A stretch of DNA of 64,000 nt from a phage, in sequence record PX880102.1, one strand, 5' to 3'. Positions within the stretch are counted from its first letter, which is position 1. Each line of letters opens with the position of its first letter. Below are positions 20,687 to 42,337 of the stretch, one piece after another. The position numbers and the translations under genes are program-made. The notes beneath the pieces are model-generated. The model made no database searches, was not told where the DNA came from, and saw nothing but the letters and a program-made list of their open reading frames with translations.

Positions 20687-21214
20687 TTATGCGAGTACCG
20701 TCTTTAACCGTTCTTCAAACTTCCGAAGAGTATTTTGGCGTTCAGCTCTTTGCTTTTTGTAAGTTTCAATACGCTCTGAAATGAGAGTGTATCGTTCATT
20801 TACTGATTCTTTCATAAAATCAGGAATTTCACGAGAAGCTTTAATCTCGTCAAATTTATCAATAACAGCTTGCTCTTCAGCAATTAAGTTATCATACATC
20901 AAAATATCTTTCTTGATGAACTCAATATCTTCTTGAGTTACACGAGATAACTTAGATGCTTTATCCTTTTTGTACTGTTCGTTAGTATCACGAGACCAGT
21001 GTAATGTACGATTTTTATTCGTATTCTTGTAAATTTCTACAATACCAATCTCATCAATAATAACGATCCAATTCCAACGGGATTTGTAAATTTGTCCTCC
21101 ATCAACCGTGATTTCACCTCCGATTGAGATGTCATTAAAGAACTTGCTTTGTGCTTCAGATTTAAATTTACCATCGTTGTAATTTACCAGGTTGAAAATA
21201 TCTTTAGCGTTCAT
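20687..21214 (-). CDS. hypothetical protein
   Basis: 175 aa, ATG with GGAGGAAC RBS. Confidence 0.65.
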   Translation of the reverse strand: MNAKDIFNLVNYNDGKFKSEAQSKFFNDISIGGEITVDGGQIYKSRWNWIVIIDEIGIVEIYKNTNKNRTLHWSRDTNEQYKKDKASKLSRVTQEDIEFIKKDILMYDNLIAEEQAVIDKFDEIKASREIPDFMKESVNERYTLISERIETYKKQRAERQNTLRKFEERLKTVLA

Positions 21215-21242
21215 TTTGTGTTCCTCCGTAGTTGATAGTTGT

Positions 21243-21272
21243 ATAGTACCACAGAGGAACAGTCTTGTAAAC
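21243..21272 (-). promoter_or_regulatory. early promoter (repeated promoter-leader module, copy 1)
   Basis: GTTTAC-N17-TGGTACTAT followed by conserved leader ACAACTATCAACT. Confidence 0.6.
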
Positions 21273-21274
21273 CA

Positions 21275-21577
21275 CTAAAAGAAACTTCTTTCACAATTTT
21301 TTCCACTGAACCAGGCGCTCACTGCTTTCTTAGTCTCAGGAGCGGTGTTATCCATAAACCATTCAAAGGCAGCCTTTTTATGATTCTGGAGGGCTTCTCG
21401 GGCTTTAATCTGCTCACGGTCTATTAACACTAACATATGAGCCTTTCTTGTCACCATGGGCTTCTTATGATTTTTTGAATACTCCCAATCATTTGTCCAT
21501 CGCATCGTTGTTGCGAATTGAAGTACAGCTTCTTTAATCTTAGTTTCGTAAATTTCACGAGCCTTTGAGTATAACAT
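21275..21577 (-). CDS. hypothetical protein
   Basis: ATG at 21577 preceded by GGAGG (100 aa); upstream in-frame ATG at 21589 possible. Confidence 0.55.
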   Translation of the reverse strand: MLYSKAREIYETKIKEAVLQFATTMRWTNDWEYSKNHKKPMVTRKAHMLVLIDREQIKAREALQNHKKAAFEWFMDNTAPETKKAVSAWFSGKNCERSFF

Positions 21578-21679
21578 CACTACCTCCATTTACCAGTTTA
21601 ATTCTAGTCATCTTTTTAATGGCAGTCCATATAATCTATTTCTGAACTGCCTTTTTTGTCTTAGAAGGCCTCTTATGAA

Positions 21680-22648
21680 TTATTTCAGAAGAGTAACCTC
21701 AGCGATTTCTTCCCAACCGTTTTTGTCGGTCATAATAAAGTCAGCAAGATAAAGAGCAGTACGCAGTGAAACATTGCGTAAACGATTAACATTGACTTTC
21801 ATCCATGATAGTGCTTTATAAGTTTCTTCATCAGAAAGACCGCGCTTTTGCATCATGTCAGTTGAAAGAATAACATCTTCAACCCTGACCATAATTTCTT
21901 CATTAGTGTGAACACCCAAATCCAAATAAACTGAGCGGGACACTAATGCTTGTAAATGTGGAGCAAGTTTAGTACCACGGTCTAATTCGCGGTCAATGTC
22001 AACGTTTGTGATAAAAACAATCGTTCCTTTAAATTCAAACTCACGCTCAATGCCTTTTTCTTCTAAGTAAGAAGACGCAGTGCTCCAGCAGACTTTACGG
22101 GTCTCTCCGGTGTCCAGAGCAGCTTTTAGAAGATTAAGAATGTCCATATCAGAGAAAACATCCACATCATCAATCAAAAGGACAGAATTCTCTTCACGAT
22201 TATTCCAAAGCTGCTCATAAAGACCAATACCAGAGATTTTACCATTAATGCTTTTATATTCAATGTATCCAATATCATTTGCTTTATTCAAAGCTTTATC
22301 TAAAGAATACGTTTTACCAATACCTGCTGCGCCAGAGATAATTAATGAACGAATATTTCCATTAATAATACCATTCGTCATCATTCCCATAACATTAAAT
22401 CTTTTATTAATGCGGGTTTTCATATCTTCATATGATTCTTTAACTTCTTCAACTTTTACACCATCATATGAAATATCTGATTTGTAAACCCAAACACCGC
22501 GACGCTTACCGTCAATTTCAACAAAAACTTTACCATCTCCTTGTGCATCTACCGGAGCATTATCTGGGAACCATTCGCCTAAGAGCTCAAAAGTTCCAGA
22601 GATTTCTTTACCGAAGTAGATACCCTTATTGATAGTTACAGTTTTCAT
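21680..22648 (-). CDS. P-loop AAA-type ATPase
   Basis: Track start is TTG; ATG at 22648 with GGAG RBS gives 322 aa; Walker A GAAGIGKT, Walker B LLIDDVD. Confidence 0.7.
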   Translation of the reverse strand: MKTVTINKGIYFGKEISGTFELLGEWFPDNAPVDAQGDGKVFVEIDGKRRGVWVYKSDISYDGVKVEEVKESYEDMKTRINKRFNVMGMMTNGIINGNIRSLIISGAAGIGKTYSLDKALNKANDIGYIEYKSINGKISGIGLYEQLWNNREENSVLLIDDVDVFSDMDILNLLKAALDTGETRKVCWSTASSYLEEKGIEREFEFKGTIVFITNVDIDRELDRGTKLAPHLQALVSRSVYLDLGVHTNEEIMVRVEDVILSTDMMQKRGLSDEETYKALSWMKVNVNRLRNVSLRTALYLADFIMTDKNGWEEIAEVTLLK

Positions 22649-22682
22649 TTTATTCTCCAAATCCGTATCAGTTGATAGTTGT

Positions 22683-22712
22683 ATAGTACCATAAAGCTTT
22701 ATGCTTGTAAAC
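22683..22712 (-). promoter_or_regulatory. early promoter (repeated promoter-leader module, copy 2)
   Basis: GTTTAC-N17-TGGTACTAT plus same leader as copy 1. Confidence 0.6.
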
Positions 22713-22742
22713 CGTTTTGTGAAAAAATTTTGAAATAAAAAA

Positions 22743-22760
22743 GGGAGCCCGAAGGCTCCC
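22743..22760 (-). terminator. intrinsic terminator (UUCG tetraloop)
   Basis: GGGAGCC-UUCG-GGCUCCC followed by U-run on minus transcript. Confidence 0.6.
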
Positions 22761-22762
22761 TA

Positions 22763-25429: not shown

Positions 25430-25457
25430 TCTCTTCTCCTTGGCAGTTGACAAGATT

Positions 25458-25487
25458 ACTATACCATAACCTTGCCAACTTGTAAAC
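25458..25487 (-). promoter_or_regulatory. early promoter
   Basis: Minus strand GTTTAC-N17-TGGTATAGT. Confidence 0.55.
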
Positions 25488-30435: not shown

Positions 30436-30462
30436 GTTATTCTCCTCTTAACTGATAGAAAA

Positions 30463-30492
30463 ATTATACCACAGTCAAGAGGAAAAGTAAAC
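30463..30492 (-). promoter_or_regulatory. early promoter of regB
   Basis: Minus strand GTTTAC-N17-TGGTATAAT. Confidence 0.6.
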
Positions 30493-33123: not shown

Positions 33124-33540
33124 TTAAATGTAAATATTTTTGCCGTAGTATTTATACCAGTGTGGCTTCATTAAAATTTTTTCATTGAGTCGTTGTTGAC
33201 TCAATTTAATAGCTGATTTGCATGGGTTATAATCATTTTTCCATTCTGCTGAAATATCGCTGATGTCAGGAACTTCAGTATCTTTTATACTGAACCCACG
33301 TTTTAAGCATTCCGTTATAATGTCTGATTGACGCTTTCGCAAAAATTCTAACTTATCGTAAAAGAACGTAACATGACCAGAACCTAAAATAAACTCGGAA
33401 GATATTTTAAAATCTTTAACCCGTTTACCATTTGCCACATGTTTACGAACTATACCAAAAACACGTGGCAATTCACGGTATTCTGCGATTAAATGTTGAT
33501 CAGCAAGTTCAGATACTAAAGTCAAATTAATACGAGTCAT
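33124..33540 (-). CDS. denV: endonuclease V (pyrimidine-dimer DNA glycosylase)
   Basis: 138 aa; [17 protein letters not shown]...WYKYYGK matches recalled T4 DenV. Confidence 0.92.
33149..33156 (-). promoter_or_regulatory. late promoter box upstream of IP-A
   Basis: Exact TATAAATA on minus strand 35 nt upstream of IP-A ATG, inside denV coding sequence. Confidence 0.5.
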
Positions 33541-33565
33541 TTTATCCCTCCAAGTAATTGTGAAT

Positions 33566-33595
33566 ATACTATCACAATTCTAGGAGAAAGTAAAC
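33566..33595 (-). promoter_or_regulatory. early promoter of denV
   Basis: Minus strand GTTTAC-N17-TGATAGTAT. Confidence 0.55.
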
Positions 33596-37019: not shown

Positions 37020-37061
37020 AGTATTTCCTTAGGTTGATTAAAAATAAAATCTGTGGAAGAA

Positions 37062-37592
37062 TTATATCATACTATTTAAGAGATGTAAACTATTTTTAAT
37101 TTTACAAATTCGTTCAGCTTCTTCAACGGCGGCGGCGATGATGCTTTTAGCTATAGGAGTACTAATACTAGTAGCTTTTACACTTAACACGATTTCTTTA
37201 TCTTTACTAGGCCAACCCCATGATTTTTCACCATGAGTGCCTTTAATTACAGCAGACACCTCAAGTGAGCATCCACTGTCACATGTTTTTACATTAACAA
37301 CCCAAGGGTCACTTTTCTCAACCGATTTCTCAGCCGGTTTATCCCAGTAAATATTAAGAATACGTGGGACATCAAATTTAGCAGGGCAAATCTTAACTGT
37401 AAGACCTTCGCTTTCTAGCCAATTAATAAGAGGGCGTTCATACATGCGGCGATGTGGGCTTTGGACTCGACAAGCCTTGTGCCCATTGCTTGCGGCTTCA
37501 CTAAGCTGTTCTAATACCTGTTTTTGCATTATTGATAAGATATCATCAAAAGATTTTTCGGAAGTTTCATTCAGTTCGGTATAAAGAGACAT
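37062..37592 (-). CDS. hypothetical protein (e.7-like)
   Basis: Track start is TTG; ATG at 37592 with GAGGAAAA RBS gives 176 aa. Confidence 0.6.
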   Translation of the reverse strand: MSLYTELNETSEKSFDDILSIMQKQVLEQLSEAASNGHKACRVQSPHRRMYERPLINWLESEGLTVKICPAKFDVPRILNIYWDKPAEKSVEKSDPWVVNVKTCDSGCSLEVSAVIKGTHGEKSWGWPSKDKEIVLSVKATSISTPIAKSIIAAAVEEAERICKIKNSLHLLNSMI

Positions 37593-37648
37593 AACGGTTT
37601 TCCTCAAATTGTAGGCTCATAATATCTCAATCATGAGCCTATGTAAAC

Positions 37649-37912
37649 TTATTTCATATTATTGAAATATTCTTCTGCGATTTCGTCGTTATCGTGGTAA
37701 ACTTTAGAAGACAGTTTAACATAACCTTCTGCTGTGAACATGTTAATCACAACCTTTACAGTATACCACTGTCCGTCTTCATTACCCATTACTGCGTAAG
37801 TTTCAAACATCGGATGGTCAGGACCGATAACTTTAATATCATTCACTGTACGACCGAAATCTTCTGAAACGCATTTCATAAAGAAGTTGAACAGTTCGCC
37901 GTAATTATCCAT
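37649..37912 (-). CDS. hypothetical protein (e.8-like)
   Basis: Track ORF begins inside the promoter; ATG at 37912 with GGAGAA RBS gives 87 aa. Confidence 0.55.
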   Translation of the reverse strand: MDNYGELFNFFMKCVSEDFGRTVNDIKVIGPDHPMFETYAVMGNEDGQWYTVKVVINMFTAEGYVKLSSKVYHDNDEIAEEYFNNMK

Positions 37913-37956
37913 TTCATTCTCCAAGTTGTTTTTCTGTATCAGTAGTTGATAGTTGT

Positions 37957-37986
37957 ATAGTACCATGGACGAACAGGGATGTAAAC
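37957..37986 (-). promoter_or_regulatory. early promoter (repeated promoter-leader module, copy 3)
   Basis: GTTTAC-N17-TGGTACTAT with same ACAACTATCAACT leader as 21243 and 22683 copies. Confidence 0.6.
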
Positions 37987-38122
37987 CGTTTTGTGAAAAA
38001 TTTTTTAAAAAGTTTTAGGGAATTCTAGGGCAGGGATGGGCAATTAAAGGATAGGATAATATATTATAAAGGGTAGAAACTAAATGATGCCTAGAGAGGC
38101 CTGGAAAGGCCTAGATACCAAA

Positions 38123-38148
38123 AAGCCCCAACCTTTTGGTCGGGGCTA
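38123..38148 (-). terminator. intrinsic terminator downstream of IP-B
   Basis: AGCCCCGACC-AAAA-GGUUGGGGCU followed by UUUUU on minus transcript. Confidence 0.65.
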
Positions 38149-38154
38149 AGAATG

Positions 38155-38628
38155 TTATTTGATTTGTTTAGCAGACCAAATGCGGTCTTTAATAATTTTT
38201 TGAATGTCTTCAACATACTCAAGAGAGTGAACATGTGGATTATCTTTGAAACTATAAGCACGGGCTAACTTTTGGCCTTCGGTTTTGATTACTAAAAGCT
38301 CTTTAAGGATAGCTTCATATTTAGAGATAATTCCTTTAACGATATTTTTTTCTTGTGCAGCTTTAGGATCTGCTTTAGGAGCAGGTTTACCCGAAGCCTT
38401 TGCAAAAGCAGCGCCAGTAGCAACTAGACTTTTCCAGGCCATACTAACCGCATTTCCCGTAAATCCTTCTGCTTTCATGTCGCGAGCAAATTGGAATCGT
38501 GATTCGTCAGAAGCATCTTTATAGGAATATTTACCCGCTGCAATGGCTGCTTTTGCGACAGCTTGAATTTCGGTGCTAGATGCTTCATTTAACACCGCTT
38601 CATTTAAAAATTGAGTATATGATTTCAT
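38155..38628 (-). CDS. internal-protein-like virion protein with capsid targeting sequence (IP-B)
   Basis: 157 aa; N-terminus MKSYTQFLNEAVLNEA resembles IP capsid-targeting sequence; Ala/Lys-rich; RBS AGGAAA. Confidence 0.65.
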   Translation of the reverse strand: MKSYTQFLNEAVLNEASSTEIQAVAKAAIAAGKYSYKDASDESRFQFARDMKAEGFTGNAVSMAWKSLVATGAAFAKASGKPAPKADPKAAQEKNIVKGIISKYEAILKELLVIKTEGQKLARAYSFKDNPHVHSLEYVEDIQKIIKDRIWSAKQIK

Positions 38629-38668
38629 CTTATTTCCTGTTTTAATTCGTGGATTTAATATACTACTA

Positions 38669-38676
38669 TATTTATA
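38669..38676 (-). promoter_or_regulatory. late promoter box upstream of IP-B
   Basis: Exact TATAAATA on minus strand about 40 nt upstream of IP-B ATG. Confidence 0.55.
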
Positions 38677-38680
38677 CTAA

Positions 38681-38706
38681 AAAGCCCCAACCTTTCGGTC
38701 GGGGCT
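38681..38706 (-). terminator. intrinsic terminator ending the tRNA/stable-RNA transcription unit
   Basis: AGCCCCGACC-GAAA-GGUUGGGGCU followed by UUUUU; near-identical to 38123..38148 hairpin. Confidence 0.65.
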
Positions 38707-39010
38707 AAGCCTTGCGGCAACCTTGTCGGGGTTCCACCTGCTAAGGCAAGTGTTTGTACGAAACGCCGGGATTCGAACCCGGTTATTAAGCAGTTGACGC
38801 TACTCAATATTTTTAAAAGGCCATATCTCGACCATATCCGAACGTTCCGTCAAAAACGCTACTCGGCTTACGGCAAAGATATTTCCTCGAATCGATAATT
38901 CTGTGCGCCGTTTCTGCTGTGATGTAAGAGGGCATCAATAAACGCAAGGATTATTAACGCAATTCCTTACTCAGGGAACATCAGTCCGACAACTTACCGG
39001 TAGCGACCCG
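38707..39010 (-). ncRNA. structured non-coding region after tRNA cluster (possible stable-RNA genes)
   Basis: No credible ORF; tRNA-like T-arm CCGGGTTCGAATCCCGG at about 38764..38781; repeated GAGTAGCGT motifs; position matches T4 species 1/2 RNAs by recollection. Confidence 0.35.
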
Positions 39011-39015
39011 GTTTC

Positions 39016-39366
39016 TTAATATTCTTTTAAAGCATAAATCTGTTTACGGCGTTCACGCCATAAATCAATTGCTTCATACGCGGATTCAACATTTCGAATT
39101 GGACGGCATTTATATAAAGATTTGTGATTTTGATATTGCGTAGATAACGGAATTTTATCTAAAAGGTCTTTACGTTCAAAGTATTCGTAACCATCTAAGC
39201 CAAATGAACGATTTTTGAGAAATTGCCAATGACCAAATTCGTTTTGAATATAAATATAATCCGCGTGTTGATAAAGTAAATTAATTTCACGAAATGAGAT
39301 ATGTTTTTCATATTCATTGAAGTAAAATGTTAAATCATGAACTACTAAATAAACATTACCTTTCAT
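39016..39366 (-). CDS. hypothetical protein encoded inside the tRNA cluster
   Basis: 116 aa, ATG with GAGGA RBS starting 17 nt after tRNA-Arg 3' end. Confidence 0.55.
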   Translation of the reverse strand: MKGNVYLVVHDLTFYFNEYEKHISFREINLLYQHADYIYIQNEFGHWQFLKNRSFGLDGYEYFERKDLLDKIPLSTQYQNHKSLYKCRPIRNVESAYEAIDLWRERRKQIYALKEY

Positions 39367-39382: not shown

Positions 39383-39458
39383 TGGTCGAGGCAGTAGGGA
39401 TCGAACCTACGACCTAGGACTTAGAAGGTCCTTGCTCTTCCTTCTGAGCTATGCCCCG
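39383..39458 (-). tRNA. tRNA-Arg (anticodon UCU)
   Basis: Hand-folded cloverleaf; anticodon loop CUUCUAA; T-loop GGTTCGATC; encoded CCA. Confidence 0.85.
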
Positions 39459-39462
39459 TAAT

Positions 39463-39538
39463 TGGGGTGACCGATGGGAGTCGAACCCATGACTACGAGA
39501 ATCACAATCTCGAGTTCTACCAACTGAACTACGGCCAC
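39463..39538 (-). tRNA. tRNA-His (anticodon GUG)
   Basis: Hand-folded cloverleaf; anticodon loop UUGUGAU; discriminator C; CCA encoded; no G at -1. Confidence 0.75.
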
Positions 39539-39652
39539 ATTAATACCTACTCCAACAATCAAGATGTCTTCACACGAAATTAAGAGAAGAGTGATCAGTT
39601 CAACCCCTATAATCGCGTCAAGTAGATATTATTGTGACAGTTGTCACAAATT

Positions 39653-39727
39653 TGGCGGACGTGATAGGATTCGAACCTATAACCAATCGCTTAACAGGCG
39701 ATCGCTCTGCCATTGAGCTACACATCC
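39653..39727 (-). tRNA. tRNA-Asn (anticodon GUU)
   Basis: Hand-folded cloverleaf; anticodon stem ATCGC/GCGAT, loop CUGUUAA; CCA encoded. Confidence 0.8.
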
Positions 39728-39731
39728 AAAT

Positions 39732-39818
39732 TGGTGGGGAGTGATGGAGTCGAACCACCCGAGTCGCAATGACAATGGATTTACAGTCCACACCGCTACC
39801 TCTACGGGATAACTCCCC
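39732..39818 (-). tRNA. tRNA-Tyr (anticodon GUA), class II
   Basis: 87 nt; anticodon loop CUGUAAA; long variable arm; acceptor GGGGAGT/ACTCCCC; D-arm pairing not fully resolved by hand. Confidence 0.7.
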
Positions 39819-39831
39819 TTAATTCTTAATT

Positions 39832-39906
39832 TGGTGGCCCTGGGTGGAATTGAACCACCATCTGGCGATTATGAGTCGCTTGCTTGAACCTTCCAGCTAC
39901 AGGGCC
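39832..39906 (-). tRNA. tRNA-Ile (anticodon CAU, presumably lysidine-modified) or tRNA-Met
   Basis: Anticodon loop CUCAUAA; T4 tRNA-Ile is known to carry a CAU-derived anticodon; CCA encoded. Confidence 0.75.
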
Positions 39907-39907
39907 T

Positions 39908-39983
39908 TGGTGCTGATTGACGGAATCGAACCGCCGACCTTCTCATTACAAGTGAGTTGCTCTACCTACTGAGCTAAATCAGC
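39908..39983 (-). tRNA. tRNA-Thr (anticodon UGU)
   Basis: Anticodon loop CUUGUAA; T-loop GGTTCGATT; CCA encoded. Confidence 0.85.
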
Positions 39984-39988
39984 AAAAC

Positions 39989-40078
39989 TGGCGGAGGCGA
40001 TAGGATTTGAACCTATGAGTCGCCGGAGCGACTGCCGGTTTTCAAGACCGGTGCATTAAACCACTCTGCCACGCCTCC
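39989..40078 (-). tRNA. tRNA-Ser (anticodon UGA), class II
   Basis: 90 nt; anticodon loop CUUGAAA; long variable arm; 2-nt spacer to tRNA-Pro as in the T4 Pro-Ser dimeric precursor. Confidence 0.85.
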
Positions 40079-40080
40079 AG

Positions 40081-40154
40081 TCTCCATACAAGGATTTGAA
40101 CCTTGGACCTCCTGATCCCAAATCAGGCGCTCTACCAAACTGAGCTACACGGAG
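40081..40154 (-). tRNA. tRNA-Pro (anticodon UGG)
   Basis: Anticodon loop UUUGGGA; CCA not encoded (as recalled for T4 tRNA-Pro). Confidence 0.85.
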
Positions 40155-40164
40155 TAAATTAAAT

Positions 40165-40238
<74 letters not shown>

Positions 40239-40243
40239 AAATT

Positions 40244-40330
40244 TGGTGCGAGAAGTGGGACTCGAACCCACAAGGAAATCATTCCGCAGCATTTTAAGTG
40301 CTGTGCCTTTACCAATTTGACCATTCTCGC
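40244..40330 (-). tRNA. tRNA-Leu (anticodon UAA), class II
   Basis: 87 nt; anticodon loop CUUAAAA; long variable arm; CCA encoded. Confidence 0.85.
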
Positions 40331-41989: not shown

Positions 41990-42277
41990 TTACAAAAGAT
42001 TTTTAGCAATAATCTTGAGATGTGCCGCAGAAATGTGTTTAGCTTTAAACAACGCAGTTTCTTCAGCAGGAGAGATAATGATTGTAGCACCATCCTTTTT
42101 AGCAGACCACCCATCACCTAGGTAAACAGTACCTTTGATTTCTTCGCCATCAACCAAGCTAATCATTGGTTTACCTTCTCGTCCTTTATTTGCTTTAATA
42201 ACTTCAGAAGTAAGAGTAGCTTCAGTAATAGTAGAAACCGGGGTAGTTGTAGAAGTAAACTCTTTGAAAGTTTTCAT
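41990..42277 (-). CDS. ipI: internal protein I (IPI; anti-restriction, virion-packaged)
   Basis: 95 aa (T4 IPI precursor length); N-terminal CTS-like MKTFKEFTS; position beside 57B; RBS AGGAAAA. Confidence 0.8.
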   Translation of the reverse strand: MKTFKEFTSTTTPVSTITEATLTSEVIKANKGREGKPMISLVDGEEIKGTVYLGDGWSAKKDGATIIISPAEETALFKAKHISAAHLKIIAKNLL

Positions 42278-42307
42278 TTTATTTTCCTAATTAATTTTGA
42301 TGAGATA

Positions 42308-42337
42308 ATAGTATCACTACCTCATCAGCATGTAAAC
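42308..42337 (-). promoter_or_regulatory. early promoter of ipI
   Basis: Minus strand TTTCACAAAGTTGTTTACA-N17-TGATACTAT. Confidence 0.6.

Follow-up and report, generated by a model that had tools for sequence, protein, structure and literature searches.

A 22-nucleotide sequence that recurs at three loci in a 64-kb stretch of phage DNA (64,000 nucleotides of sequence record PX880102.1, hereafter the window) most probably represents the cores of sigma-70 immediate-early promoters for nrdC.8, nrdC.10 and e.8, members of a T4 promoter sub-family subject to PeSL-type exchange. A probability of about 0.85 is assigned to this reading. Judged by its sequence, the window is a Tequatrovirus (T4-like) genome: it is 95-98% identical to many Tequatrovirus genomes and, apart from the customary cassette differences, keeps the T4 gene order from gene 44/62 across the nrdC, tk, e and tRNA regions to the baseplate region. 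The genes near all three repeats, whose names follow from comparison with annotated relatives and T4, lie on the minus strand, and the elements described below are read on that strand unless the plus strand is named. An Rfam scan of the whole window returned 10 tRNAs only, with no match at the promoter modules.

The repeat, AGTTGATAGTTGTATAGTACCA, has exactly three copies in the window, at 21230-21251 (copy 1), 22670-22691 (copy 2) and 37944-37965 (copy 3). No further site with three or fewer mismatches is present in the 64-kb window, and the number expected by chance is 0 (100 dinucleotide-preserving shuffles). With three exact copies against none expected, the identical repeat that an initial annotation of this DNA had reported at three loci is borne out, with some adjustment of its coordinates; the start given for copy 1, 21221, was 9 nt too far left, and those of the other two copies were off by one. 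A -35 element had also been placed next to each copy, and GTAAAC, the reverse complement of GTTTAC, is indeed found on the plus strand at 21267-21272, 22707-22712 and 37981-37986. The upstream block said to accompany two of the three copies proves to be TTTCACAAAACGGTTTAC, common to copies 2 and 3 only, at 93% identity over 30 nt; the block GTAAACCGTTTTGTGAAA (plus strand) is also common to copies 2 and 3. The further claim that other early promoters in the window have different leaders needs narrowing, being true only in part: P26299 has ACAACCATCGGAT and several more carry the CTATCAA core.

Each site, in minus-strand orientation, consists of GTTTAC, a 15-nt spacer, TGG, TACTAT and then ACAACTATCAACT, an arrangement that can be summarised as GTTTAC-spacer-TGGTACTAT. 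The 22-mer itself comprises a TGG extended -10, the -10 hexamer TACTAT, an ACAACT discriminator and ATCAACT, which would span +1 to +7. An independent consensus scan called all three sites as TTTACA-N17-TACTAT with TG upstream, and all three copies have the features by which T4 Pe promoters are recognised (-35 GTTTAC(A), 17-nt spacing, TGn and -10 TAnnnT). Copies 2 and 3 possess an UP element, (A)AAATTTTTTCACAAAACG, that is 87-95% identical to the T4 e.8, motA and frd.3 UP blocks, whereas the UP region of copy 1 is weaker, a moderately A/T-rich stretch that doubles as nrdC.9 coding sequence. An SD sequence, GGAGG or GGAG, lies 6-7 nt ahead of the ATG in all three copies.

The downstream region of T4 Pe26.4 starts at map unit 27,044 (PMC6024815), which corresponds to the A that occupies position 16 of T4's identical 22-mer ahead of imm.1. 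The same rule, a start 7 nt after the -10, also reproduces map unit 41,225 for Pe40.4 (PMC6024815). By analogy with the Pe26.4 start, transcription in the window would begin at 21236, 22676 and 37950 on the minus strand, giving 5' UTRs of 22, 28 and 38 nt for copies 1, 2 and 3, respectively, whose sequences part ways after +7. The initial annotation had described much of the 22-mer as leader. Because the T4-based starts leave only 7 of the 22 bases transcribed (+1 to +7), the 22-mer is ruled out as a transcribed leader motif, and the supposed leader would consist mostly of untranscribed discriminator.

On sequence grounds, the three copies are part of a standard T4 early-promoter sub-family and are not special to this window. 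T4 has six exact copies of the 22-mer, at nrdC.8 (53922), nrdC.10 (55363), e.8 (70675), imm.1, motA and ndd.6, together with near-copies (3-5 mismatches) at frd.3, cef, denV, ndd.4, mobD.5 and trna.4. Some 40 strong T4 early promoters include two related sub-families, TACTAT-ACAACTATCAACT and TACTAT-TACCCTATCAA, and a looser +1 consensus, CTATCAACTACTGAGGAG, is common to many other T4 early promoters. Among sampled IMG/VR and GenBank relatives, the exact 22-mer stands ahead of at least nine different ORF starts. Earlier work characterises T4 early promoters by UP, -35, TGn and -10 elements plus further stretches of consensus (PMC2988021). The T4 Pe promoters of nrdC.8, nrdC.10 and e.8, taken as reference whether mapped or merely predicted, share this organisation with the window and are identical to its copies in 22-mer, -35, spacing and position; copies 1 and 3 depart from T4 only by a few spacer and leader substitutions, none of substance. 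Identity to T4 suggests that the three sites are active as promoters in the present phage. Promoters of this kind, with UP (copies 2 and 3), -35, TGn and -10 elements, enable T4 to take over the host RNA polymerase as infection begins.

The three copies differ in their history among relatives. Copy 2 is a real cassette-insertion hot-spot, at which relatives carry one to three extra ORFs with junctions inside the module. Its 22-mer, with the -10 at 22688-22683, is the central part of the early promoter of nrdC.10 and sits within a context of 146 nt identical to T4. The -35 GTTTAC and an A/T-rich UP block, AAAATTTTTTCACAAAACG, occupy 22707-22741. Directly upstream of the UP element, after nrdC.11 and 29 nt from the -35, is an intrinsic terminator hairpin, AGGGAGCCTTCGGGCTCCCT, followed by a T-run (22742-22761); the G4498 and G29 annotations mark it as a terminator, and it is the stem-loop part of the copy 2 composite module. 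On the other side, TTGGAGAATAAAATGAAAACT (22640-22660) contains the SD, the ATG (22648-22646) and two nrdC.10 codons, and overlapping alignment ends fall at 22640 and 22660. The gene that copy 2 would drive is an nrdC.10 homolog of 322 aa (21680-22648) with weak AAA/STAND NTPase similarity (Pfam). The product of nrdC.11 matches the Pfam RlaP nucleotidyltransferase.

In vB_SsoM_113, G29 and AV121, two small ORFs and a second early promoter lie between the copy 2 promoter and nrdC.10. The vB_SsoM_113 cassette is flanked by a direct repeat, TTGG(A/G)GAATAAAATGAAAACT, that covers the SD, ATG and two codons, and TTGGAGAATAAAATGAAAACT is the homology patch doubled there, one on each side of the two-ORF cassette. 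In G29 the left junction of the cassette falls directly after ACAACTATCAA. Both G29 and AV121 contain an additional 486-bp ORF flanked by repeats of the T-tract, UP element and -35. The two-ORF cassette is found in roughly one quarter of 547 matching records and all three ORFs in 10, while a few records (e.g. SV76 and N2) match solely the part of the query with the 486-bp ORF. The cassette ORFs are small, and one is a DUF4031 protein. The terminator-promoter module ahead of the G29 cassette is in essence the T4 gene-32-terminator/frd.3-promoter module (~110 bp), which resides at an unlinked locus, and the second promoter of this cassette is of the T4 frd.2 type.

Copy 1 provides no evidence of a role in recombination. 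Its 22-mer is the core of the nrdC.8 early promoter and identical to that of the T4 nrdC.8 promoter, with TGG at 21251-21249, the -10 TACTAT at 21248-21243 and the discriminator ACAACT, followed by the start proposed above; read from the sequence, the -35 hexamer GTTTAC occupies 21267-21272. The nrdC.8 homolog that it would drive encodes 175 aa (20687-21214) and has no Pfam match. The stop codon of nrdC.9 (Pfam DUF7203) lies at 21275-21277, 2 nt upstream of the -35, and because of this proximity copy 1 is without a terminator and its upstream region is coding, being the 3' end of the nrdC.9 ORF. With a 401-nt query centred on copy 1, 653 of 656 matching genomes are colinear across the promoter. 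The match is unbroken at 95% identity or more in about 500 records, and some 154 Mosigvirus-like records (~82% identity) likewise span the promoter. The coding upstream half and conserved neighbours are perhaps the cause of this inertness. Because copy 1 shares the core yet is not a junction, an identical module is not by itself enough to create a hot-spot.

Copy 3, by its sequence, is orthologous to the T4 e.8 promoter. Its 22-mer forms the e.8 early promoter core (-10 at 37962-37957), with the SD GGAG at 37922-37919 and the ATG at 37912-37910; the -35 GTTTAC and the UP block AAAAAATTTTTCACAAAACG, 93% identical to that of copy 2, span 37981-38009. The e.8 homolog that it would drive (37649-37912) encodes 87 aa and has no Pfam match. 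A terminator hairpin, AGCCCCGACCAAAAGGTTGGGGCT, with a T-run occupies 38124-38147, upstream of the module and 138 nt from its -35; a second copy of the hairpin stands beyond a 157-aa ORF, at 38683-38706. T4, G29, FL44, G10400 and RB7 all retain the module intact, together with a conserved block of 110 nt upstream of it. The module itself is spared by the nearby breaks in synteny, which fall at the terminator hairpin (38117-38149) and, downstream, at the following promoter (37597-37601). Partial megablast matches gave the appearance of a copy 3 breakpoint in about 20% of genomes; this was a word-size artefact, as the alignments of G10400 and RB7 are intact. AV121 is without the -35-to-SD core of the e.8 promoter owing to a 73-bp deletion that is unique among 516 records; this singleton could be an assembly error and is not counted as evidence of mobility.

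PeSLs have been defined, with the PST/T4 consensus TTTACW-N17-TAYWAT, in earlier work (Arbiol 2010, PMC2839356; Comeau 2014, PMC4122927). All three copies resemble PeSLs in having a strong early promoter that fits this consensus and has an SD and start codon at its 3' end, and in their hyperplastic location upstream of small ORFs; compared with T4 and further relatives, many replacements are seen in the nrdC-mobD and e-tRNA-IP regions. Copy 2 shows a further likeness in its cassette indels, whose crossovers fall either in the AT-rich region or in the stretch from the -10 to the ATG, and the ndd.4-ndd.6 promoters (Comeau 2014 Fig. 6A, PMC4122927) belong to the same sequence family. The stem-loop component is uneven: copy 1 has a 14-bp hairpin, copy 2 an adjacent terminator, and copy 3 is marginal, its terminator being 138 nt away and not contiguous. 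The copies differ from PeSLs in that indels at the module occur at only one of the three, copy 2. No crossover among the three copies that removes the intervening genes is seen in the relatives compared. The likeness to PeSLs is drawn at the level of sequence.

Breakpoints across the wider region tend in the same direction. Between 18000 and 42900, 11 of 35 alignment breakpoints fall inside early-promoter modules, which make up 6.3% of the 24.9 kb (binomial 6e-6), an enrichment confounded by the fact that viable recombinants break between genes and promoters are intergenic, and by the relatedness of the genomes, whose breakpoints are not independent. The PeSL-like cassette proposed in the initial annotation is partly supported, a reading that is largely right but uneven: the sites are T-even PeSL-type early promoters and copy 2 is a hot-spot, whereas copy 1 is colinear and the copy 3 module conserved. 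The absence of breakpoints at the repeats in every relative had been named as the outcome that would speak against the proposal, and the copy 2 cassette junctions do lie inside the module. The picture of repeats flanking an ATPase/NTase block survives for one half; copies 1 and 2 bracket nrdC.9 and the ATPase-like nrdC.10, and the NTase gene nrdC.11 lies upstream of copy 2, outside the bracketed segment.

The closest competitor to PeSL-type exchange holds that the repeats are merely strong early promoters whose identity stems from selection only, convergent or purifying, with no shuffling of genes. This account is unlikely, yet it must be taken seriously. The parts of the 22-mer all map to contacted elements (TGn, -10, discriminator and initial transcribed bases), and Mosigvirus and Dhakavirus orthologs retain the CTATCAACTAC core around +1 even with a different spacer and discriminator. 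The lack of any breakpoint at copy 1 across ~650 genomes and the conservation of copy 3 together with e.8 are likewise consistent with promoters that stay in place. Selection for polymerase binding does not, however, predict that segments outside the contacts should be shared at unlinked loci. The nrdC.10 and frd.3 promoters are 91% identical in the UP element and 100% in the 15-nt spacer, with leaders that are 25% identical, whereas imm.1 and ndd.6 have leaders that are 100% identical and spacers that are 26% identical. The nrdC.8 and ndd.4 promoters agree in spacer (86%) and leader (90%) and differ in UP (41%), and the ndd.4 promoter of one IMG/VR genome matches the nrdC.8 module base for base from the -35 to the SD, both included. 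T4 gene 32 and the G29 cassette have a terminator hairpin in common, and the copy 2 cassette indels have junctions inside the module and module repeats at their flanks. Neither spacers nor terminator hairpins are contacted by the polymerase, and their recurrence at unlinked loci is therefore better explained by descent from a common source through ectopic exchange, the crossovers falling in the invariant cores.

An element that acts at the RNA level in the 5' UTR, either a RegB/S1 site or an operator for a translational repressor, could in principle account for the identity in place of promoter function. The strong RegB/S1 site has the consensus GGAGRAYARAA and is cut GG*AG (PMC3014915). GGAG is present in the SD of all three leaders; copy 2 (GGAGAATAAAA) matches the consensus exactly, copy 3 (GGAGAATGAAA) with one mismatch and copy 1 (GGAGGAACACA) poorly, and a longer leader, ACTGATACGGATTTGGAGAATAAAATG, is common to many family members. 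RegB cleavage of the leaders may be expected from these matches, most clearly for copy 2, and RegB-sensitive GGAG leaders at copies 2 and 3 would shut their mRNAs off after the early period. As the source of the 22-mer's identity, however, such an element is improbable: 7 nt of the repeat are transcribed if the starts are as in T4 Pe26.4, the leaders, of unequal length, diverge right after +7, the RegB motif is not part of the 22-mer and is poor at copy 1, and the transcripts from the copies' own starts are predicted to be unstructured.

Promoter cores under selection and PeSL-type exchange, the preferred reading, would together account for both the constancy of the repeat and the mosaic around it. 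Core identity would reflect selection on polymerase contacts and shared ancestry via ectopic homologous recombination, acting jointly. The core is invariant because every base appears to sit in a polymerase-contacted element under selection, and occasional crossovers within modules would follow because patches of near-identity (20-110 bp) are dispersed in hyperplastic regions and T4 recombination is efficient. Such crossovers would insert, delete and swap small ORF cassettes between modules, which is the published PeSL mechanism. The pathway is probably general homologous recombination and not a site-specific system, because the crossover points vary within the module. Recognition of the repeats by a dedicated site-specific recombinase or homing system, as integron-like attachment sites, is very hard to credit: cassettes are inserted precisely at modules and a helper protein was raised as a possibility by Arbiol 2010 (PMC2839356), but the crossovers vary among SD-ATG, just after +11 and the UP/-35 region, as fits short-patch homologous recombination, the cassettes come without an associated recombinase (their ORFs are small, one being DUF4031), and copy 1 is not used.

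Copy 1 is also the site of a possible translational gate. An inverted repeat around its -10 and start site (21219-21261, minus strand) would form a 14-bp hairpin, identified by fold statistics, whose 5' arm (21261-21248) consists of the spacer plus TGGT and whose 3' arm (21232-21219) is the leader with the SD GGAGG (21227-21223). The predicted energy is -22.4 kcal/mol, with a z score of -4.4 (0/200 shuffles) and a second estimate of z -4.67. The hairpin is possible in read-through RNA only, with the -10 and start site in the loop; the transcript from copy 1's own start is predicted to be unstructured. Conservation is here a matter of fold statistics per ortholog, not of covariation, and the arm offsets differ in Bp7 and HX01. 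The T4 nrdC.8 ortholog keeps an SD-pairing hairpin (z -4.38). In Dhakavirus Bp7 the ortholog forms its hairpin from other arms (CTCCAGTAG/CTACTGGAG), in which the SD is once more included (z -4.32); in Mosigvirus HX01 the hairpin around the -10 is weaker (z -1.85) and leaves the SD out. Hairpins of this kind occur at seven of the window's 13 strong early promoters; at regB and denV, too, the SD is paired. Folding of the copy 2 and copy 3 leaders yields no significant structure (z +0.8 to +1.1 and about 0, with -0.1 for copy 3), and leader RNA structure at these two copies is therefore ruled out.

These fold models tentatively suggest that the nrdC.8, regB and denV promoter hairpins form a conserved translational gate, by which protein would be made from each gene's own immediate-early transcript only, although the balance of probability lies against it. 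Read-through RNA from upstream promoters would hide the SD and the RegB GGAG in the hairpin. The T4 genes e, soc, 49 and I-TevI each have a promoter within a hairpin that masks the SD when transcription starts farther upstream (PMC3014915). Copy 1 is alike in that its start site is in the loop and its 5' arm, present in read-through RNA only, pairs with the SD. The embedded promoter is a late gp55 promoter in those genes (PMC3014915) and an early sigma-70 promoter at copy 1, and a restriction of translation to the immediate-early transcript would be another logic. Copies 2 and 3 are without an SD-sequestering hairpin of the e/soc/49/I-TevI type. No description of an SD-gating hairpin at early promoters was found in the reviews consulted.

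The finding itself is already known, as T4 early promoters and PeSLs have been published (PMC2839356, PMC4122927), and nothing in it departs from known biology. The SD-sequestering hairpin at several early promoters is the sole item possibly worth follow-up; if true, it would be an early-promoter counterpart of the late-promoter switches at e, soc, 49 and I-TevI. For annotation, the repeats can be entered as the early promoters of nrdC.8, nrdC.10 and e.8, with probable minus-strand starts at 21236, 22676 and 37950, and little beyond that. Across hundreds of sequenced Tequatrovirus genomes, they add a further clean example of a point already in the literature, that composite modules of terminator and promoter serve as joints for accessory-gene swaps in T4-type phages.

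The e.7 position holds a 181-aa ORF (37062-37607) that has no Pfam match and is unrelated to the content of T4, G29, AV121, or FL44 at that place. The replaced segment (37037-37600) carries an early-promoter module at each edge, with -35 hexamers at 37090 and 37648, and homology stops 6-10 nt inside the ORF. At the nrdC.10 locus, the G29 cassette (L028, 5140-6375) has at its edges the two types of promoter that also flank frd.3 in T4 (146100-146950). One edge consists of the gene-32 terminator and the frd.3 promoter, and the other is an frd.2-type TACCCTATCAA promoter. The ORFs between the two promoter types differ between the G29 cassette and the T4 frd.3 locus.

Inverted repeats around the -10 hexamer are significant at several further early promoters (z -2.9 to -5.7), bracketing it at 25431-25487, 30437-30492, 33540-33595, 37607-37648, and 42277-42337. 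In the promoters of regB (30492) and denV (33595), the GGAG Shine-Dalgarno sequence is paired by the -35/-10 spacer, as in the nrdC.8 promoter.

FL44 (L030, 4163-4882) harbors an additional 720-bp ORF in the nrdC.9/nrdC.10 interval, with the window breakpoint at 21664/21699. Because this site lies at the 3' end of nrdC.10, where there is no promoter, the insertion is an indel unrelated to the promoter modules. AV121 (OR352951, 20505-20580) lacks exactly 73 bp of the e.8 promoter, namely the core from the -35 element to the Shine-Dalgarno sequence, which leaves the ATG directly fused to the UP element. Since this loss is unique to AV121 (1 of 516 matching records), it must reflect a deletion confined to this phage (a singleton) or else a fault in the assembly.

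Between the e.8 promoter and a terminator hairpin lies a 110-nt non-coding block (38010-38123) that is kept in T4, G29, AV121, FL44, G10400, and RB7. It matches nothing in Rfam and contains no obvious ORF. The tRNA cluster (39383-40330) encodes 10 tRNAs (Arg, His, Asn, Tyr, Met, Thr, Ser, Pro, Gly, and Leu) compared with eight in T4, and it lacks segB, tRNA-Ile, and tRNA-Gln. The match to T4 rnaC/rnaD falls at 38674-39016; Rfam contains no family for these RNAs.

Upstream of e.8, a terminator hairpin occurs twice as a 36-nt direct repeat (38115-38150 and 38674-38709; 94% identity), and the two copies, together spanning 38115-38709, enclose a minus-strand ORF of 157 aa (38155-38628) that has no Pfam match. 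At the same place, T4 carries just one hairpin and lacks any ORF. The 157-aa ORF looks like a cassette gained or lost through terminator-terminator recombination.
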